From: Paludibacteraceae bacterium
Lineage (GTDB): Bacteria; Bacteroidota; Bacteroidia; Bacteroidales; Paludibacteraceae
Assembly (NCBI GenBank): GCA_963668615.2
Contig: CAXXCL010000001.1
Coordinates: 233,521-297,520 of the forward strand
Direction: 5' to 3'
DNA length: 64,000 bases
In this document: positions 35,787-46,651 of the stretch, one piece after another
Numbering within the stretch: position 1 is the stretch's first letter
Layout: every line of letters begins with the position of its first letter
Program-made: the position numbers and the translations under genes
Notes under the pieces: generated by a model
Seen by the model: the letters and a program-made list of their open reading frames with translations, nothing else
Told to the model about the DNA's origin: nothing
Databases searched by the model: none

Positions 35787-38700
35787 ATGAGAATGACACA
35801 CAGACAACATACCATTTCGTTTAGGTTTATACTTTGCTTAACGGTATTCTTTTTTGCAAAGAGTATTTTTTTGCAAGCCCAGTTACGCAGTACCTATCCG
35901 GTACAGGTAAGTACGGTGGTGTTAAGTCCGGCACCTATCTATTTGGTAGATTATAGCGGAGGCGAGACGGACAAGCTATCCGTTACGTTGCTGAGTCGGG
36001 ATTTGAACCAATCGAGTTTGAAAGTTAAATTGCGACTTACCCTCAAATGTTCGATGGGACAGGAGTTGGTTACCAAGACCGAAGCCTATTTCGAGGCGAT
36101 AACCTTGGAACCGGGTGTGCCGTTGCGTTTGACCATGCAAGAGTTGGCACCGTATTTCAGGCAAGAAAATTTGAATAGTTACGGAAGCCTTTCGCAAGGG
36201 AAATTGCCGTTGGGCAGCACGCAGTTTTGTTTTGAGGCGGTGGAATATTATACCGGCAAAGTTCTTTCGACACAAAGTTGCGGTTCCACGTTTTTAGCTT
36301 TGCAGAAGCCTCCGCTTTTGGTACAACCGGCTGTTGGGAAAAAGCAATATGCAAGCGATAATTTGAATATACTTTTTCAGTGGTCGCCGCAACATTCTTT
36401 GGGAGTAGGTACGGTAGAATATGAGTTTACGCTGAAAGAAATAGAGGATAATACAGCTTCATTGGAAACGGCCTATAGCTATTCTCCTGTCATTTACAGC
36501 ACCACCACGGGAGCTACCGGTTTGGCGTATACAATGGCCAATCCGCCCCTGTCAGCCAATAAGAAATATGCCTGGAGCGTTCGAGCTTTTTTGCCCTTTT
36601 CAGCCAATGCAAGCAATATTCCCTTTGAAAATAATGGCAACAGTACCATTTCGTGGTTTCAAATGAAATCACCCTGCACGGCACCCACCAACGTACAAGC
36701 CGCCACATCGGATGATAAGTTGATATTGGAATGGACACCTTCGAGAGAATACAGCTCCTACGAAGTAAGCTACCGCCGTAGTGATTTTGACAAACAAACC
36801 TGGTACCAACAGCAAACACAAGACGCCACCATTACCTTGAAAGACCTTACCCCGGGACATACGTACCTTTATCGGGTAGGAGGCGTTTGTGAAGGACAAA
36901 CGGAAGTAACATACGGCAGCTCGGATAGCCTTGCCCTTCCTTTAAATGACAGCATTATTTTGGCACATTGCGGAGAAAAACCTTCAATAGAACTCTCCAA
37001 CCAAGAACCCAAAGAATCTTTGACACAGGGGGATAAGATTAAGGCAGGTGATTTTTCCGTTACCTTGACAAGCGTTAATGGAAGCCATGGCATTTTCAGT
37101 GGAGAAGGATATGCGGTTGTCCCTTTTGTGGGTAATTTGCCCTTAGCGGTACATTTTACGGGCATAGGCGTAAACACGGACAATCAGCTGATATCAGGGT
37201 TTATCGAAACAAAATATGATGCATCCAATTCGGGTATTGTAAGTACCGATGTTCTCTTTTATGGCGGAACGGCAACCGCCCAGGCAGGTATTATAAAGCC
37301 CGATGTAACGTTAGCGTTCAGCGTGTCGGAACAAACCCGGGTGCAGTACGACCCAGAGAGTCATACCTTGCTTTTTTATGATGCCACGGGAAATTTGATA
37401 GGAAGCGTAGAACCTTCGGGAGATGAATCCGATGTTTCTTTTCCTGTTATCATACAAGATAAAGACGGCAATACGTACGAGGTAGCTCCTGCCGATGGAG
37501 CCTCGTCTGCGGGCGGTACCACGCAAAAGTGTGTGCTTACCCCTTTGGGAAAACAAGGAGCCGCTTTGTCCGATAATGCCTTTAATTACAATACATTGGA
37601 TACGAATAAAGGCATGGTGACCTTTTTTGATGAGGGCGGAACATACAGTTTTGATACCTTTTTGCCGTATTACGATAATGTTTCTTTAATCCGTTATGCC
37701 AATGGTCAGGATGGCGATCGTCTTTATCCTAAACTTTCCGCTACCTATTATGTGCCCTGGAAGTTTATTCCAACAGGAAAGAAAGATAAAGTCAACGCTT
37801 CTGTCAGTTTGTCGGACAAGACCTTAGAGGCAACCAAAATTGTTTTTGAAACCAAGGAAGGCTTGGTTGTTCCGTCTGTATATGATGCCAAGAAAAAGGA
37901 ATTTGAACTTACCTTAACCGGCACCCAGGAGGGTAGCAGTCAGAGTGTTTATGCTCTATATCCATGCGGCAGCGATAAATATTACCAGTTGGGACAGTTG
38001 CGTACCGACTCCCACAGTACACAGACATACAAAGTGGTGTTGGTCAATGCAGGAGGCAGTTATCAAACCAATACCATTGGCAAAGAACTCAATGCCCTGT
38101 ACAACAAAATAGGCATTAATTGGGAAGTGGAAGAAGTTACGGATTTTAGTTACGACGCCGACCAAATAAAGAACCTGTTTGACAAAAACAGCGGCTTGTT
38201 GAGTGCCTATAACAGCGAAATGGTAAGTCTGAACAATGAGCTGAAAACCTTTTTGGGCAGCCGATACGATGCGACGGCTTGTTACGTGTTTATGGCAGAT
38301 AAGAATGCCGCAGGAAAGAAACGCGATGTGGTAGGTTTTATGCCCCGAGGCAGACAGTTTGCCTATATGTATGCGGGTGATATGGCAAAAGATGAAATCT
38401 CGGCAGCCATAGCCCATGAGCTGGCACATGGTAAGTTTAAGCTACGCCATACCTTTGATGCGTCGTATGGCTCCGACAGAAAAGAGGGCGAAAATCCTAC
38501 GAACCTGATGGACTACCGGGGTGGTACCCATATAGCCAAATGGCAATGGAGTCAGGTATATGACCCTGCTATTTTGAATGGCATCTTTGATAGCGACGAA
38601 GAGGGACAATTGGCTATCCTTGGGGGCATTACTTGGTTAGGCGACTTGTTTTGGGGTCTGGCTCCCGATGCACAAGAAAAAAGTATAGAAAAAGATATAT

Positions 38701-39806
38701 CTTTGTTTAACCATGTTTACCAAAAATATGACAGCTATTTTGCTGCTTCAACCACAAAAAATACGGCTATAGGTTTAACCGCTTATAAGAAATGGTCGGT
38801 AAGAAAAGAATCGCATGCACAAACGATATGTAAGAAAATATTTGAGAAATTAGTCAAAAAAGAAAACGAGCATTACACCCTGGTGTCAAAAGGGGTTTAT
38901 GTGGAAAAATACACCCTGGAAAACATACCTTACCGAATTGCTGTTTATAGTCCGAAAGGCTCTTTTGAATTGGATTACGACAAGATTCGTTTGGGCAGTA
39001 TCAGTGAATTGGCAGATTGCCAATACGTAAAAGCGGGATATACAAATACGTATGGTTTAATTTCGTTTTATAACGCCAAGCAAGAGTCGATTATGACCAT
39101 TCAAATAATGGGCGGCGAACCTGAAACAGCCATGTTGCGATGGTTAAATTACCTGGGTTTAGTGGTTGCTTCGGATAAACAAAAGGAGGCGGATAAGAAA
39201 AATGAAGAAAAACTGGATGCCGTAAATGTTAAAGTACATACTGAGGCGGATGTGAAGGATTATTGGGACGGGAAAGAAGAAAAAGGAATAAAAATAGCTT
39301 TAGACTCAATTGCTACCTATGTAGAAGCAACTGAATATAAGCAGGAAACAGGCTCTCTTCGTACTGGTAAAGATAAATTAGCATTAACTTATATGGATTG
39401 TACGGAGTTAGTAGCTCGATTTGTTCAGTTAGCTTGTGAACAAAAAGATGTCCAATCATTCTCCACATTAATGTTAGCTCCATATGCCAAAGAAAATGGA
39501 GTTTATGGAGGCTATTTAGAATTTGTATCGGGAAGTGCTTCTGAAAGTCATGTTGATATACGACCTGGAGATATTTTTATATGGAGGAGAAAATCGGATG
39601 GACATGTTGGTGTGGTAGAGTCTTACAAGGAACCATATGTCCATGTTATAGAAGCCTTGACAAGTGGATGTGAAGGAAGCCTGAATGTTGGCAGTTGCAA
39701 TCGGTGTGTAAGAAGATCAAAATATACACGGAATGGTAAGGCTTTATTTAAGCATGAGGGATGGAAAGGATATTTTAGAACTATAATTAAAAATGAGAAA
39801 AAATGA
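35787..39806 (+). CDS. Giant secreted modular protein: signal peptide, FN3-like module, HExxH zincin motif, C-terminal NlpC/P60-like Cys/His module (polymorphic-toxin-like)
   Basis: 1339-aa ORF. The signal peptide ends ..SIFLQAQ. The FN3-like segment (res about 297-375) reads CTAPTNVQAATSDDKLILEWTPS...YEVSYRR...LTPGHTYLYRV. HELAH lies at res 877-881 (nt 38415-38429), followed by NLMDY. The C-terminal motifs are MDC(1205)TELV, PGDIFIW, DGH(1273)VGVV and HVIEA. No T9SS CTD is present at the C-terminus. Confidence 0.8.
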   Translation: MRMTHRQHTISFRFILCLTVFFFAKSIFLQAQLRSTYPVQVSTVVLSPAPIYLVDYSGGETDKLSVTLLSRDLNQSSLKVKLRLTLKCSMGQELVTKTEAYFEAITLEPGVPLRLTMQELAPYFRQENLNSYGSLSQGKLPLGSTQFCFEAVEYYTGKVLSTQSCGSTFLALQKPPLLVQPAVGKKQYASDNLNILFQWSPQHSLGVGTVEYEFTLKEIEDNTASLETAYSYSPVIYSTTTGATGLAYTMANPPLSANKKYAWSVRAFLPFSANASNIPFENNGNSTISWFQMKSPCTAPTNVQAATSDDKLILEWTPSREYSSYEVSYRRSDFDKQTWYQQQTQDATITLKDLTPGHTYLYRVGGVCEGQTEVTYGSSDSLALPLNDSIILAHCGEKPSIELSNQEPKESLTQGDKIKAGDFSVTLTSVNGSHGIFSGEGYAVVPFVGNLPLAVHFTGIGVNTDNQLISGFIETKYDASNSGIVSTDVLFYGGTATAQAGIIKPDVTLAFSVSEQTRVQYDPESHTLLFYDATGNLIGSVEPSGDESDVSFPVIIQDKDGNTYEVAPADGASSAGGTTQKCVLTPLGKQGAALSDNAFNYNTLDTNKGMVTFFDEGGTYSFDTFLPYYDNVSLIRYANGQDGDRLYPKLSATYYVPWKFIPTGKKDKVNASVSLSDKTLEATKIVFETKEGLVVPSVYDAKKKEFELTLTGTQEGSSQSVYALYPCGSDKYYQLGQLRTDSHSTQTYKVVLVNAGGSYQTNTIGKELNALYNKIGINWEVEEVTDFSYDADQIKNLFDKNSGLLSAYNSEMVSLNNELKTFLGSRYDATACYVFMADKNAAGKKRDVVGFMPRGRQFAYMYAGDMAKDEISAAIAHELAHGKFKLRHTFDASYGSDRKEGENPTNLMDYRGGTHIAKWQWSQVYDPAILNGIFDSDEEGQLAILGGITWLGDLFWGLAPDAQEKSIEKDISLFNHVYQKYDSYFAASTTKNTAIGLTAYKKWSVRKESHAQTICKKIFEKLVKKENEHYTLVSKGVYVEKYTLENIPYRIAVYSPKGSFELDYDKIRLGSISELADCQYVKAGYTNTYGLISFYNAKQESIMTIQIMGGEPETAMLRWLNYLGLVVASDKQKEADKKNEEKLDAVNVKVHTEADVKDYWDGKEEKGIKIALDSIATYVEATEYKQETGSLRTGKDKLALTYMDCTELVARFVQLACEQKDVQSFSTLMLAPYAKENGVYGGYLEFVSGSASESHVDIRPGDIFIWRRKSDGHVGVVESYKEPYVHVIEALTSGCEGSLNVGSCNRCVRRSKYTRNGKALFKHEGWKGYFRTIIKNEKK

Positions 39807-40420
39807 GAAAAATAGTATTTATTTTATTTTTGGTGAGTTTCGCGGATTGTAGTTTAGCGAAACAACAAGAGACCAGTGCCGTTAATTTTTTTGATTTTTT
39901 TCTGTATGAGGAGGGTGTGTCACTCTCAGATTGTAAATTAAATGAAAAACCACTCAAAAAAATTCCTTTTATTTATTATGAATTTTATTGTGAAGATACA
40001 AATTTGAATGGGTCAGGGTGTTTTTTTGCTATACCAAAGGATACTTCAGTTTGGAAAATCAGCGATGAGGAAAATAAAAAAAATATAAAAAGGGAAGAAA
40101 AATATCAACAAACTCTTGCAAGAGAAAAAGAAGCAGTTCGTTTTTTGTTTTCTCAAAGGACGGTTCTTGCAAATAAATTTGATTTGTATGTATTTTATGT
40201 GCCTCAAAAATATATCAAGGTTCTTCCTGATGGGTTGTCGAAAGATGATGGCACTATTGCTGATTATTATTATGAATCTGATAATTCAATTATTTCGGTT
40301 TATCAATATAAGGATGGTGTATGGATAAAAAATGGTGAGTTTAAAAGTAAAGGTGAAACAACTAGAACAGCAGGAATGCTGTTTGCCGAAAAGTTGTTAA
40401 AGAAAAAGTTTTTTCAATGA
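39803..40420 (+). CDS. Secreted small protein, candidate cognate immunity protein
   Basis: 205-aa ORF whose ATG overlaps the upstream stop (ATGA at 39803-39806). It has an N-terminal signal peptide (MRKIVFILFLVSFADCSLAKQ), is AT-rich, and I do not recognise a family. Confidence 0.6.
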   Translation: MRKIVFILFLVSFADCSLAKQQETSAVNFFDFFLYEEGVSLSDCKLNEKPLKKIPFIYYEFYCEDTNLNGSGCFFAIPKDTSVWKISDEENKKNIKREEKYQQTLAREKEAVRFLFSQRTVLANKFDLYVFYVPQKYIKVLPDGLSKDDGTIADYYYESDNSIISVYQYKDGVWIKNGEFKSKGETTRTAGMLFAEKLLKKKFFQ

Positions 40421-41077
40421 AAAGACCCTTTGCTTTCGCACGAATCTTTTCGTGTGGAAGTGTTATAAAAGTAGGATATTTACAATGCAAAAAATAGATA
40501 TGGTTATGCCCACTATTGTGATTTATTTGTTGGATTTGATTGTGTAGATTTTAATGCATGTGCAACAAGTACACAAACAGTTAAGTGTAAACAAGGAACG
40601 CCAAATAAAAGCGAAGAAATCAAGAGTAAATACATTTGTACGCCTGATTTATTTGATTATGTTTACTCATGCTCTGCACGTTTAAAAGGTGGTAGATATG
40701 ATTTGGGAAATGGACCACCTACATCAAAGGATGGGTCAACATTTTTAGGACGTGGTTTTATTCAATTGACAGGCAAGTATAATTACAAAGAATTAAGCAA
40801 AGCCTGGAATGAAGATTCTGAGAATGCCAACAATAAAAAATATTTTCATATACAAACTAAAGATGGAGGACATATTGATGAGTTAGTAACTGACTTAGAT
40901 GTAGCTATGAAAGCGAGTATGTACTTTTGGAGATTAAAAGGATGTAATACGTATGCAGATAAGGATGATACAGCTGGGGTAACAAAAAAAGTTAAGGGGA
41001 CAGACAAGGATTTAAAAGAAATTATAAATAGAGGAAATATAAAAGACAAAGCATTAAAAGCATTAAAATTTAAATGA
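40421..41077 (+). pseudogene. Orphan GH19-family lysozyme/chitinase-like domain, 5'-truncated and interrupted
   Basis: One reading frame gives KDPLLSHESFRVEVL, stop (TAA 40466), K, stop (TAG 40472), then DIYNAKNRYGYAHYC...RYDLGNGPPTSKDGSTFLGRGFIQLTGKYNY...ASMYFWRLKGCNTYADKDD...VTKKVKG. No ATG precedes the track's TTG at 40703. GRGxIQLTG.NY and the xxWFW-like motif are GH19 signatures. Confidence 0.65.
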
Positions 41078-41820
41078 TTATGAAATTTAAACAACTACTA
41101 GCGATTGCGATTTTATCTACGAGTGTTTGTAATGCTCAAATAGTAAAATTATCAGATTTGAATGGCACTTGGGTTAGTGGTTTGAGAGAATCTAGTTTTA
41201 TTGTATTTGTAAAAGACACAATGGTAGGATTGGATTTTTTTAAACTTCCAGATGTTTATATTAATTATACAAAAGTTGGATTTGTTGATAAAAACAATCA
41301 AGATTTAATAAATATATATAGGAAGGAGTTTAATATGAATTCGAATTCTAATGAAGATATACGCATGGTAAATTTTGATGTTCCTGAAGACATGAAAATT
41401 GAAATTATGGATGAACAAATTAATGAAAATGATTATTTTTATTATGGAGGTACATTATGTAGTTTAGGTATTGACCCAGAGGATTTACCCTCTAAAGTAG
41501 GTTCTAGGTTTGAATTGATAAATTCTAATGTTTTTGTTTATATCAAAGTCGAGAGCTTGCCCAACGAGTATTTAAAGGCGTTGTATAAAAAAGGGAAAAA
41601 TGATAAAAAGGATTATCTAAAAGATTTCTTTAATATGGAATTTAAAGAAATCAAAGCAACAAAGTCCATTATTTATTCTACCCCCAACAAACCCACTAAA
41701 ATGTATCTTCTCAAGGGTGACGTAGTAGAAATATTGCAAGAAAAAGATGATTGGTTACAAATCAGGTATTATGGCAAGAAAACCATAGAAGGCTGGATAA
41801 AGAAGGGTGATGTGGAGTAA
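41074..41820 (+). CDS. Secreted protein with SH3b-like C-terminus, candidate immunity partner of the GH19-like remnant
   Basis: 248-aa ORF whose ATG overlaps the upstream stop (ATGA at 41074-41077). The signal peptide is MIMKFKQLLAIAILSTSVCNAQ. The C-terminal KGDVVEILQEKDDWLQIRYYGKKTIEGWIKKGDV is SH3-like. Confidence 0.6.
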   Translation: MIMKFKQLLAIAILSTSVCNAQIVKLSDLNGTWVSGLRESSFIVFVKDTMVGLDFFKLPDVYINYTKVGFVDKNNQDLINIYRKEFNMNSNSNEDIRMVNFDVPEDMKIEIMDEQINENDYFYYGGTLCSLGIDPEDLPSKVGSRFELINSNVFVYIKVESLPNEYLKALYKKGKNDKKDYLKDFFNMEFKEIKATKSIIYSTPNKPTKMYLLKGDVVEILQEKDDWLQIRYYGKKTIEGWIKKGDVE

Positions 41821-42044
41821 TGAAATAATGGATCAAAAGGAGAACTATTTGTATCAGAATCCCCGTCCAATGCGATTTAATTAATCCCATTACTCTATGT
41901 TATAAGAAATTGCATTTCGTAAAAGAACCAAATATATGGAAGAGGAAAATCAAAAAATAATTTATTTTCCCGTCAAGCAATATTTACCAATCCTGTTTTT
42001 TTTATTTTTGAAATGAATAACCAACATATTTCCAAATAAAGAGG

Positions 42045-44338: not shown

Positions 44339-46651
44339 ATGCAAAAATATATTCTTCTTTTTTATTTCTTTTTATCCATTTCTATTTCAGCTCAAGTTTC
44401 CGATAATTTCTTTGATAATGACTTCTCAAATAACCCCGAATGGAAAGGAAATGCAGAAAAGTTCATTATTAACACATCTCAACAATTACAACTCAATGCC
44501 ACAGCCGAAAACGGAACTGCCTATTTATCAACCTCCTCGCAAGTAACCAAAAACGCCTCCTGGGAATGCTTTGTAAAAATCGCATTTACACCAAGTTCAT
44601 CCAATCTGGCAAAAATTTATCTTATTTCCGACAAAGAAGACCTAACAGCCCCATTAAACGGTTATTATATTCTGATTGGAAACAACACAAAAGACATTAG
44701 CCTTTACCGACAAGAAGAAACAACCTCCACCAAAATTATTGATGGCACAGACAATCGATTAAATGGCTCTACCAATGAAGTTTTCATCAAGGCTACCCGT
44801 TCATCAACGGGCGAATGGAAGCTATCCTCAAAATTATTAACCGAAACAGAATACTACACAGAAGGATCGACAATTGACACAAAACTGGAAGCTTGTTATT
44901 TTTCAGGCATCGTGTGCAAATACACTTCAACACGCAGTACCGAATTTTATTTTGATGATTTTCTCATTTCGGGCGATTTATATGAACCACCTGTTTTGCC
45001 AACCTACAAAGCCATTCGCGGCGATATTGTTTTCAATGAATTAATGGTCAAACCAACCCCAACAGTTGGACTCCCCGACGCTGAATATATCGAATTATAC
45101 AATAATACAAACGAAGCTGTCAACCTCCAAAATTTCACGCTTAACGGATTTTCTAAAACCTGTACATTTCCTCTTTATGTTATTCAACCGAACAATTTTG
45201 TTATTGTCTGTAGCAAAACAGTTTTGCCATCAATGCAACAATTTGTCAATTGCATCGGGTTAGAAAATTTTCCTCCACTTAGCAATTCAAGTGGACTTTT
45301 ATCTCTCTATAATGCCGAAAATGAACTCATTTCTTGGGTAGAATACTCGGAAAATTGGCTCACTGACTCTTTCAAGAAGAATGGGGGCTGGAGCTTGGAA
45401 TGTATTGACCCGACAAATTTTATAGGCAATTCTTCCAATTGGAATTCAAGCCAAAATCCACAAGGAGGAACACCCAACGCCACAAACAGCATTCAAGCCA
45501 CAAATGAGGATGTAACGGAACCTATTATCAAAAACATTGATGTAATTGACAATCAGAATATTACATTATATTTCGACAAACCGATGAATACCTCTCTGCT
45601 ATCGGACATAAGCAAATATATTTTGAGCCCAATAACAAACCTCTCTCTAGCTACTTCTAACGCACCTCAAGGAAATACCGTAAGTCTCCAATTTGCTGAA
45701 AAACTGCAAGAAAACACGGTTTATACACTGCAAATACCTGAAATAAAAGATGTTAATGGCAACAAAACCGATAAAACATATCGAATAGCAATTCCGGAAG
45801 ATATCGAACCGAATGATATTATCATCAATGAAGTTTTATTCAATCCATATAGTAACGGCGTTGATTTTGTTGAAATATACAACCGTTCCGACAAAGTTTT
45901 GAACCTAAAACAATTGATGCTTGCCAATAAAAATAGTGATGGAAAATTAAATGCCTTTCCCGTAATTGCACCAAACGGATTTCTAATCTTTCCACAAGAT
46001 TATGTTGTTTTGACAACCGAAAAACAAGCCGTCTGCAATTTCTACACATGTCCTGAGAACGACCATTTTTTAGAAATAAATTCATTCCCTAGCTTCCCCG
46101 ACAATGAAGGAACTGTTGTACTTACCACCCTAACCGAAACCATCATTGACGAATTTTCTTATTCGGAAAAATTTCACCATGCACTAATTAATAACCCAGA
46201 AGGCGTTTCCTTGGAACGTATCAGTTTCAATCGTCCATCCAACGAAGCAAGCAATTGGCATTCTGGGTCTTTTAATACAAACTACGCGACTCCGGGCTAC
46301 AAAAACGCACATACCACCGAAAAATCGACATCCGACGCTGAAATCTGGTTATCTCCAAAAACATTTTCACCGGATAATGATGGACAGGAAGATATTTTGA
46401 CCATTAATTACAAATTTACAGCAGCAGGTTACATAGCGAACCTAACCATCTACGATGCAAACGGAAACAAAGTAAAACAACTGTACAACAATGCCCTATT
46501 AAGCGACGAAGGTTCCACCACATGGGACGGCACAGACGAACAATCAAAAGTTGCTCCGGTGGGTATTTATATTGCCTACTTCGAAGCATTTAAAACAGAT
46601 GGGTCTATAGTGAAAGAAAAAATGGCTTTTGTGCTTTCTGCAAAAAAATAA
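44339..46651 (+). CDS. Secreted lamin-tail-domain (LTD) protein with Ig-like C-terminal domain
   Basis: 770-aa ORF with a signal peptide and two LTD-like segments (IVFNELMVKP...AEYIELYNNTNEAVNL and IIINEVLFNP...VDFVEIYNRSDKVLNL). The C-terminal FSPDNDGQEDILTINY...LTIYDANGNKVKQL...WDGTDE...GIYIAYFEA resembles a FlgD-Ig or T9SS type-B CTD. Confidence 0.7.
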   Translation: MQKYILLFYFFLSISISAQVSDNFFDNDFSNNPEWKGNAEKFIINTSQQLQLNATAENGTAYLSTSSQVTKNASWECFVKIAFTPSSSNLAKIYLISDKEDLTAPLNGYYILIGNNTKDISLYRQEETTSTKIIDGTDNRLNGSTNEVFIKATRSSTGEWKLSSKLLTETEYYTEGSTIDTKLEACYFSGIVCKYTSTRSTEFYFDDFLISGDLYEPPVLPTYKAIRGDIVFNELMVKPTPTVGLPDAEYIELYNNTNEAVNLQNFTLNGFSKTCTFPLYVIQPNNFVIVCSKTVLPSMQQFVNCIGLENFPPLSNSSGLLSLYNAENELISWVEYSENWLTDSFKKNGGWSLECIDPTNFIGNSSNWNSSQNPQGGTPNATNSIQATNEDVTEPIIKNIDVIDNQNITLYFDKPMNTSLLSDISKYILSPITNLSLATSNAPQGNTVSLQFAEKLQENTVYTLQIPEIKDVNGNKTDKTYRIAIPEDIEPNDIIINEVLFNPYSNGVDFVEIYNRSDKVLNLKQLMLANKNSDGKLNAFPVIAPNGFLIFPQDYVVLTTEKQAVCNFYTCPENDHFLEINSFPSFPDNEGTVVLTTLTETIIDEFSYSEKFHHALINNPEGVSLERISFNRPSNEASNWHSGSFNTNYATPGYKNAHTTEKSTSDAEIWLSPKTFSPDNDGQEDILTINYKFTAAGYIANLTIYDANGNKVKQLYNNALLSDEGSTTWDGTDEQSKVAPVGIYIAYFEAFKTDGSIVKEKMAFVLSAKK

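Follow-up and report, generated by a model that had tools for sequence, protein, structure and literature searches.

The window, a 64,000-nucleotide (nt) stretch of contig CAXXCL010000001.1 of a Paludibacteraceae bacterium, very probably holds a displaced, truncated orphan toxin tip of glycoside hydrolase family 19 (GH19) with its retained immunity gene, in a TANFOR-class polymorphic toxin locus at 35787-41820. The tip remnant was found downstream of the main toxin-immunity pair of this locus, and it had neither a start codon nor a delivery region. This arrangement had been proposed by the first-pass annotation, and it was strongly supported by a near-identical scaffold protein that carries the same tip (P0062), a complete orphan (P0058), the exchange of tips at one junction, and about 18 loci in which tip and partner gene are paired (P and L numbers denote related proteins and loci). 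The elements of the remnant and its partner gene were as follows.

40501..41077, + strand: GH19-type toxin tip remnant, truncated at its 5' end, equivalent to residues ~95-284 in the full tip P0002 and to residues 180-371 in P0058; stop TGA at 41075-41077.
40458..40500, + strand: non-homologous junction filler, which holds TAA 40466 and TAG 40472 and has no convincing similarity to the GH19 coding sequence of L001 or other loci.
40703..41077, + strand: TTG-start open reading frame (ORF) of 124 aa, the sole start-bearing ORF within the remnant and the one that gene callers report; it is without catalytic residues.
41074..41820, + strand: intact 248-aa ORF (246 aa from ATG 41080) with a signal peptide, a beta-rich N-domain at residues ~21-185 and an SH3 tail at ~41647-41817.

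First, the region 40421-41077 was translated in the frame that continues past the stop of the preceding 205-aa ORF. The frame read KDPLLSHESFRVEVL, TAA (40466), K and TAG (40472), after which 200 codons were open (40475-41074). The GH19 motifs GRGFIQLTGKYNY and ASMYFWRLKGCNTYADKDD..VTKKVKG were both found in the translation, which reproduced the frame as it had first been described. At the composition of the window (36% G+C), a run of 200 open codons would arise by chance with a probability of about 8e-7, so 40475-41074 is a real coding remnant. The claim that no ATG precedes TTG 40703 also held, since this TTG was the earliest in-frame ATG, GTG or TTG past both stops. The public collection includes its exact 124-aa product (P0057). 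At 40486, an ATG in another frame opened an ORF of 20 codons only; rescue from this ATG by a frameshift in the adjacent A6 run was considered and is formally possible, but the product would still be without catalytic residues, signal and homology arm.

The GH19 affinity of the fragment was then examined with profiles. The fragment alone matched Pfam PF00182 at E 0.009 (16.2 bits, under the cut-off of 25.5), with residues 82-116 on profile positions 99-133. A database search with the fragment returned 20 relatives, the closest at 93% identity and the most distant being canonical PF00182 proteins, and phmmer matched it to the PF00182-bearing proteins P0017 (1e-8) and P0018 (5e-8); PF00182 itself matched 6 of 13 family members. 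The GH19 affinity, sub-threshold with Pfam alone, was borne out by a profile built from the fragment and its homologues (A2), which matched the solved GH19 endolysins 9ms7 (E 5e-42) and 4ok7 (E 1e-22), E-values that are inflated by the three canonical GH19 sequences in the profile (P0017, P0018 and P0020). The A2 profile also matched plant and bacterial GH19 chitinases. The fragment was thereby identified as the last ~190 residues of a peptidoglycan hydrolase tip of the GH19 type.

The missing part of the tip was defined from alignment A2. Full-length relatives have ..PLRMAHFLGQIGTETGGLK..KE.. upstream, in which E73 and E82 of P0002 are nearly invariant; by the established GH19 mechanism, this pair would be the catalytic glutamates. 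The catalytic motif of the subfamily, G(T/A)ETGG..K-E, was wholly deleted in the window copy, where homology begins about 13 residues after the second Glu, so that the N-terminal helices and both Glu are gone. Because both catalytic Glu are absent, the window copy is a GH19-derived pseudogene and no functional family member.

At the DNA level, identity to the relative L001 began exactly at 40501, and upstream of this position the two sequences were unrelated. Sliding identity over the retained 40501-40980 was 98-100%, and 189 of 192 positions of the fragment matched residues 180-371 of P0058. Because homology starts only at 40501, the stops at 40466 and 40472 belong to the junction and not to decayed GH19 coding sequence. 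The module had been described as decayed by stop codons; the alignments point instead to inactivation by 5' truncation rather than by nonsense mutation. The resemblance of an HES segment (40439-40447) to the catalytic-Glu region was likewise not sustained. This segment lies in a palindrome at 40437-40457, upstream of the breakpoint at 40500/40501, it is not homologous, as DNA or as protein, to the catalytic region that L001, P0001 and P0058 retain, and relatives have G(T/A)ETGG. An alignment of TAA 40466 with a Glu codon was also tried and was unsupported by pairwise alignment.

A Cys-rich insert of about 55 residues (CDLF..C.D..AC....KC...........YIC......YSCS) was observed at window positions 40520-40690, fragment residues ~16-72. 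It was specific to this GH19 toxin subfamily and absent from P0017, P0018 and P0020, and it suggests disulfide stabilization outside the cytoplasm. Separately, in two assemblies of Pseudarcicella hirudinis the same GH19 orphan was intact in one and frameshifted near residue 95 in the other (L003 9744-10522 against L008 3271-4050). This frameshift, which may be a sequencing error or a real difference, is close to the truncation position in the window.

The tip was next traced to the scaffold gene upstream, which consists of the following parts together with its own downstream gene.

35787..39806, + strand: main polymorphic toxin gene of 1339 aa, with a Sec-type N-terminus, fn3, an HELAH metalloprotease-like motif and a pre-toxin region; Pfam matches fn3 and CHAP.
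39252-39281 in the 1339-aa ORF, + strand: tip-swapping junction ..DVKDYWDGKE, ending near 39281; the CHAP tip, the P0021 tip and the GH19 tip all begin right past DVKDYWDGK.
~39282-39803, + strand: CHAP-domain tip of the 1339-aa protein (Pfam CHAP), a peptidoglycan amidase/peptidase.
39803..40420, + strand: 205-aa ORF with a signal- or lipoprotein-like N-terminus, overlapping the stop of the main gene and presumed from its position to encode the immunity protein of the CHAP tip.

P0021 was 98% identical to the window scaffold through residue 1165 (..DVKDYWDGKE) and then continued into an unrelated tip. P0062, the C-terminal 459 aa of a near-identical scaffold, ran from DVKDYWDGK straight into TNASFPITGKQL.. 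and a complete GH19 tip. Three near-identical scaffolds (window, P0021 and P0062) thus carried three different tips at the same residue. The third relevant protein, P0058, consisted of ~100 aa of the pre-toxin region, which serves as a homology arm, and a complete GH19 tip with a C-terminus identical to that of the window; P0058 and P0021 were on one contig of 154,921 bp. Both P0062 and P0058 were members of the 90% cluster of the window's 124-aa ORF. The GH19 tip was accordingly seen in three states, fused in P0062, as a complete orphan with its arm in P0058, and as a truncated orphan in the window. Fusion was also found in other genera, in which the scaffold N-terminus and the GH19 tip formed a single ORF (L013, 1307 aa; L010, 1024 aa), each followed by a small ORF. 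Fusion of this tip to the full-length protein, for which the first-pass annotation had suggested a search, was therefore found in P0062 and in these two single ORFs. No recombination arm, that is, no homology to the main gene upstream of the tip, was found in the window; the homologous sequence begins only at 40501, within the tip itself, and the module is a degenerate orphan.

We also searched contigs for related loci; the best 80 loci were considered, and the nearest named genera were Lacihabitans, Runella, Pseudarcicella and Flectobacillus. The host of the window locus was taken to be a Cytophagales-like bacterium. Arrays of GH19 orphans and partner genes were present in Runella, Pseudarcicella and Flectobacillus, in which decayed remnants were common and stood at varied stages of decay (L002 3592-3825, L007 13753-13896 and L011 2101-2205). 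A DVK..Y-like motif also preceded more distant GH19 tips (P0002 and P0011).

The class of the scaffold was assigned from full-length homology. Thirty homologues of the 1339-aa protein covered its N-terminal ~70% and differed in their C-terminal Pfam toxins (ART, EndoU, Endonuclea_NS_2 and PT-HINT); several of them were named TANFOR domain-containing. Matches to P0035, P0039 and P0042 had E-values of 1e-87 to 1e-100 over ~70% of the length. Interchangeable C-terminal toxin domains were found both among these homologues and among the window, P0021 and P0062. The N-terminus of the 1339-aa protein is hydrophobic and is a candidate Sec signal peptide. On this homology, the protein would be a TANFOR-class Bacteroidetes polymorphic toxin. 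Profile searches with Pfam and NCBIfam gave no family match for the 205-aa ORF.

Next, we analyzed the 248-aa ORF. It was seen intact from ATG 41074, as originally reported; this ATG overlaps the stop TGA of the tip (ATGA), and a second ATG at 41080 is where homologues start. Full-length homologues shared 62-80% identity, the C-terminal SH3 domain was detected by Pfam SH3_3 (E 4e-6), and the AlphaFold2 (AF2) model of the protein had a pLDDT of 88. Homologues stood directly 3' of GH19 tips in about 18 loci (L001-L009, L011, L013-L019 and L021). This conserved adjacency and the signal peptide, which together make up the support for such a role, are the grounds on which the 248-aa protein is presumed to be the periplasmic immunity protein for the GH19 tip.

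The two parts of the protein differed in conservation. Among 19 relatives (alignment A3), N-domains were 19-79% identical to that of the window and the SH3 tail was 62-96% identical; in P0102 the two values were 25% and 95%. The immunity proteins of these arrays thus look like mosaics of a variable N-domain and a conserved SH3 tail, and the tail may act as a functional anchor common to them, as a recombination arm, or as both. In Flectobacillus longus (L009), at least five cassettes were observed to end in this SH3 tail. Two further segments were distinguished by comparison with L001.

40981..41077, + strand: tip end (last ~30 codons), in which identity to the L001/P0062 variant falls from 98-100% to ~70% and stays low through the immunity gene.
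41821..41849, + strand: spacer past the immunity gene, which in the L001 counterpart precedes the next REPIN and GH19 cassette.

The fall in identity spanned window 40981-41340 against L001 720-1046. It separated two variants of tip and immunity gene on an otherwise identical toxin, variant A in the window and P0058 and variant B in P0001 and P0062. This is the pattern expected if the toxin end and the immunity protein co-diversify, as they may have done here. At the other end of the gene, 41781-41849 (69 bp, comprising the last 40 nt of the gene and the 29-nt spacer) was 96% identical to the end of a different L001 cassette.

The palindrome beside the breakpoint was compared with repetitive extragenic palindromic (REP) elements.

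40437..40457, no strand assigned: single REP-like palindromic unit CGCACGAATCTTTTCGTGTGG, 21 nt, directly upstream of the truncation point, with the HES codons inside.

The window contained a single copy of the unit CGCACGA..TCGTGTGG, against a chance expectation of 0.04, and the window hairpin folded at -8.5 kcal/mol (z -3.9). In L001, two inverted units (REPIN-like) were found at the equivalent junction (L001 79-160) and formed a long hairpin (z -7.9), while units flanked gene remnants in L091 (1150-1415) and L092 (1-160). In a scan of metagenomes, at least 120 contigs carried the unit, often in several copies each. In L139 (111-744), two inverted units flanked an intact 182-aa REP-associated tyrosine transposase (RAYT), which matched NF047646 at E 9e-26 (90.5 bits against a cut-off of 80 bits) and Y1_Tnp at 6e-9. 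Short RAYT remnant peptides matched nothing in Pfam or NCBIfam, and their identity was settled by the intact L139 copy. The window unit was a diverged single copy, which kept 15 of 17 stem and flank bases and had one compensatory stem change.

By comparison, the palindrome is a general REP/REPIN element and not a cassette-specific site. It resembles known REP/REPIN and RAYT elements in its palindromic unit of ~21 nt, its inverted doublets, its many metagenome copies and its position beside RAYT genes. Unlike them, it is present as one diverged unit in the window, and its association with toxin truncation is an observation made here and not a described property of such elements. REP units stood at toxin-gene truncation points in three strains (window, L001 and L091), and a REP element may have caused the deletion. 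The hairpin was also considered as an integron attC-like cassette recombination site and was rejected, since the unit is dispersed over so many contigs and flanks a RAYT gene. As a separate observation, in L091 (1-1153, equal to window 37728-38880) the scaffold gene was cut after ..KKENEHY by a RAYT-remnant element, and the tips and cassettes were gone up to the right flank.

The surroundings of the locus were also investigated. The island is flanked upstream by asd and aroB and downstream by a polysaccharide deacetylase gene; aroB also flanks the Pseudarcicella array. Two features lay at or beyond its right end.

41922..41951, + strand: right-hand boundary of the variable island, where ~10 codons (..NIWKRKIKK*) are left from the 3' end of a 200-aa lipoprotein-like gene found at this site in related strains.
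44339-46651: gene located 2.5 kb past the island; its 770-aa product has LTD, Big_5 and a CHU_C type IX secretion signal.

From 41922 the window was 96-97% identical to six contigs (L087-L092), which have other small genes instead of the cassette. In L089 and L092, the 200-aa lipoprotein-like gene followed a 139-aa ORF with a weak match to WapI (immunity). Three of the contigs (L087, L088 and L090) started ~240 nt before the deacetylase gene. These assembly breaks at the right edge indicate strain heterogeneity or repeats. A scan for sigma-70 promoters and terminators, which is not designed for Bacteroidetes promoters, gave counts at or near the shuffle level.

Several results weigh against the view that a displaced orphan and its immunity gene lie in a TANFOR-class locus. 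The NCBIfam TANFOR model TIGR02542 gave no match to the 1339-aa protein at E<=1, and it scored only 34-41 bits (residues ~26-175) on P0035, P0039 and P0042, under the cut-off of 67 bits. In a fold search with the AF2 model, the N-domain of the 248-aa protein had no match to known immunity or lysozyme-inhibitor folds, and only the SH3 part matched the PDB. The REP unit is a lone and diverged copy in 64 kb, and its link to the deletion is circumstantial. Finally, the island is hypervariable and other assemblies break here, such as L086, which is 100% identical and starts at 41832, so that an assembly join is formally possible. If such a join had produced the truncation, the GH19 orphan or fusion would be complete in the real genome, and 40421-40500 would be a chimeric join of strain variants. 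The many metagenomic contigs that end at the edge of this strain-hypervariable island, and the repeated SH3-tail and spacer sequences, which are of a kind that breaks or collapses assemblies, would fit an artefact. However, the junction sequence is unique rather than repetitive, the independent contig L001 has a different 5' truncation of the same tip beside the same REP family, and ORF calls of 123-124 aa beginning 'MGNGPP..' recur on several independent contigs. We therefore consider an artefact very unlikely.

It is just as improbable in our judgment that expression of the remnant continues, starting at TTG 40703 or, with a +1 slip in the A6 run (40490-40495), at ATG 40486, and yields a non-enzymatic protein that, for example, titrates immunity protein as a decoy or partners the scaffold. 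Any such start yields a product from which both catalytic Glu and the N-terminal helices are missing, with no signal peptide and no homology arm. Although 200 codons are still open, this is explained by recency, as the DNA is 98-100% identical to an intact relative, and other arrays hold similar remnants in various states of decay (L002, L007 and L011). In favor of expression, one added A at 40490-40495 joins ATG 40486 to the GH19 frame, and Jana et al. suggested a possible interaction of TANFOR proteins with toxins encoded separately downstream (PMC7073777). The least probable explanation of all is a remnant of a phage lysis cassette, made of a GH19 endolysin and an accessory gene, in place of an interbacterial toxin module. 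The closest solved structures are indeed phage GH19 endolysins, and SH3 domains are common in endolysins, but P0062, L013 and L010 carry this tip in one polypeptide with the toxin scaffold, the neighborhood consists of housekeeping genes (asd, aroB and polysaccharide deacetylase) and is free of phage genes, the SH3 protein bears a signal peptide but lacks a catalytic domain, and the Cys-rich insert is absent from the canonical proteins P0017, P0018 and P0020.

The displaced orphan tip and the retained immunity gene very probably arose in the following way. The secreted 1339-aa scaffold now carries the CHAP tip, followed by its own presumed 205-aa immunity gene, and a second cassette is left over behind it, namely a GH19 peptidoglycan glycosidase tip minus its first ~90 residues (both Glu among them) plus an intact cognate immunity gene. 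Tips are exchanged by recombination at DVKDYWDGK. In this genome the orphan has lost its arm and its catalytic half through a deletion with its breakpoint at 40500/40501, beside the REP-like palindrome, and the remnant can neither yield an enzyme nor recombine back into the scaffold. The immunity protein may have been kept since it would still neutralize GH19 tips sent into the periplasm by kin strains. We infer that the full tip is enzymatically active, that the 248-aa protein neutralizes it, and that the scaffold leaves the cell by a Sec route, possibly through the type IX secretion system (T9SS).

A broader scheme of cassette turnover through two conserved recombination arms is rather unlikely. 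The 5' arm would be the pre-toxin region up to DVKDYWDGK and the 3' arm the SH3-tail coding sequence of the immunity gene, with REP/RAYT elements seeding the deletions that kill old cassettes. It was suggested because the SH3 tail is so much more conserved than the N-domain and because 41781-41849 is shared with the end of the other L001 cassette.

The locus was compared with known toxin systems. Poole and colleagues in 2011 and Koskiniemi and colleagues in 2014 reportedly described orphan toxin-immunity (CT/I) modules that follow rhs and cdiA genes. Like those modules, the window holds a start-less tip and an intact immunity gene downstream of the main pair, and the tip is fused in other strains. 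The DVKDYWDGK sequence is analogous to the VENN or PxxxxDPxGL junction motifs of rhs/cdiA systems, and the retained immunity is presumed to give kin protection in both. However, the scaffold and the presumed secretion route differ, the target is periplasmic peptidoglycan, and the window orphan, without its homology arm and catalytic half, is a dead end and not a reservoir. Orphan immunity genes also occur in type VI secretion system (T6SS) loci of Vibrio cholerae and in the acquired interbacterial defense clusters of Bacteroidales. Rhs orphans are cited, and orphan immunity genes and arrays in T6SS loci of Pantoea are described, in PMC9796082. As in T6SS orphan immunity, an immunity gene was kept here after its toxin was lost or displaced; unlike there, the gene still adjoins a large piece of the toxin, and delivery is by a system other than a T6SS.

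Among solved enzymes, the GH19 (COG3179-type) phage endolysins PWe2 (9ms7) and SPN1S (4ok7) share with this tip the motifs GRGxIQLTG, W..N..AD.DD and VT..ING, and their two-Glu motif with a spacing of 9 residues is present in its full-length relatives too. In contrast to these endolysins, this subfamily has the Cys-rich insert, placed between the Glu pair and the LGNG motif, and would act as a toxin tip with a dedicated presumed immunity protein; the window copy has no catalytic part.

TANFOR proteins have a conserved N-terminal ~900 aa, fn3 and variable C-terminal tips, which include peptidoglycan hydrolases; they have Sec signals and downstream immunity genes, and an association with the T9SS was proposed, T9SS substrates being reported as enriched near TANFOR genes (Jana, Salomon and Bosis, 2020; PMC7073777). 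The window locus agrees with this description in its large Sec-signal protein, fn3, variable tip, immunity gene directly downstream and nearby CHU_C substrate, the last of which fits the reported enrichment. It departs from the class as published (PMC7073777) in that TIGR02542 does not score on the window protein. GH19 and CHAP tips are not listed by name in that paper and the word 'orphan' is absent from it; stand-alone downstream toxin genes were read as possible partners of TANFOR proteins (PMC7073777). P0058 shows instead that a downstream toxin can represent a classical orphan cassette that has kept its homology arm.

The pattern in the window is an ordinary and well-known one of bacterial toxin loci, and no new kind of system. 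It illustrates cleanly how a tip is displaced in TANFOR toxins, a class that has been little studied, and it allows the "separately encoded downstream toxins" of the 2020 TANFOR paper to be reinterpreted as orphan cassettes. It also defines a candidate pair of GH19 toxin and SH3-tailed immunity protein, together with a junction motif useful for engineering and for tip prediction. If the two-arm scheme were true, the stand-alone toxins downstream in TANFOR loci would form a reservoir for recombination, and the SH3 tail would have two roles, as a protein domain and as a DNA homology arm.

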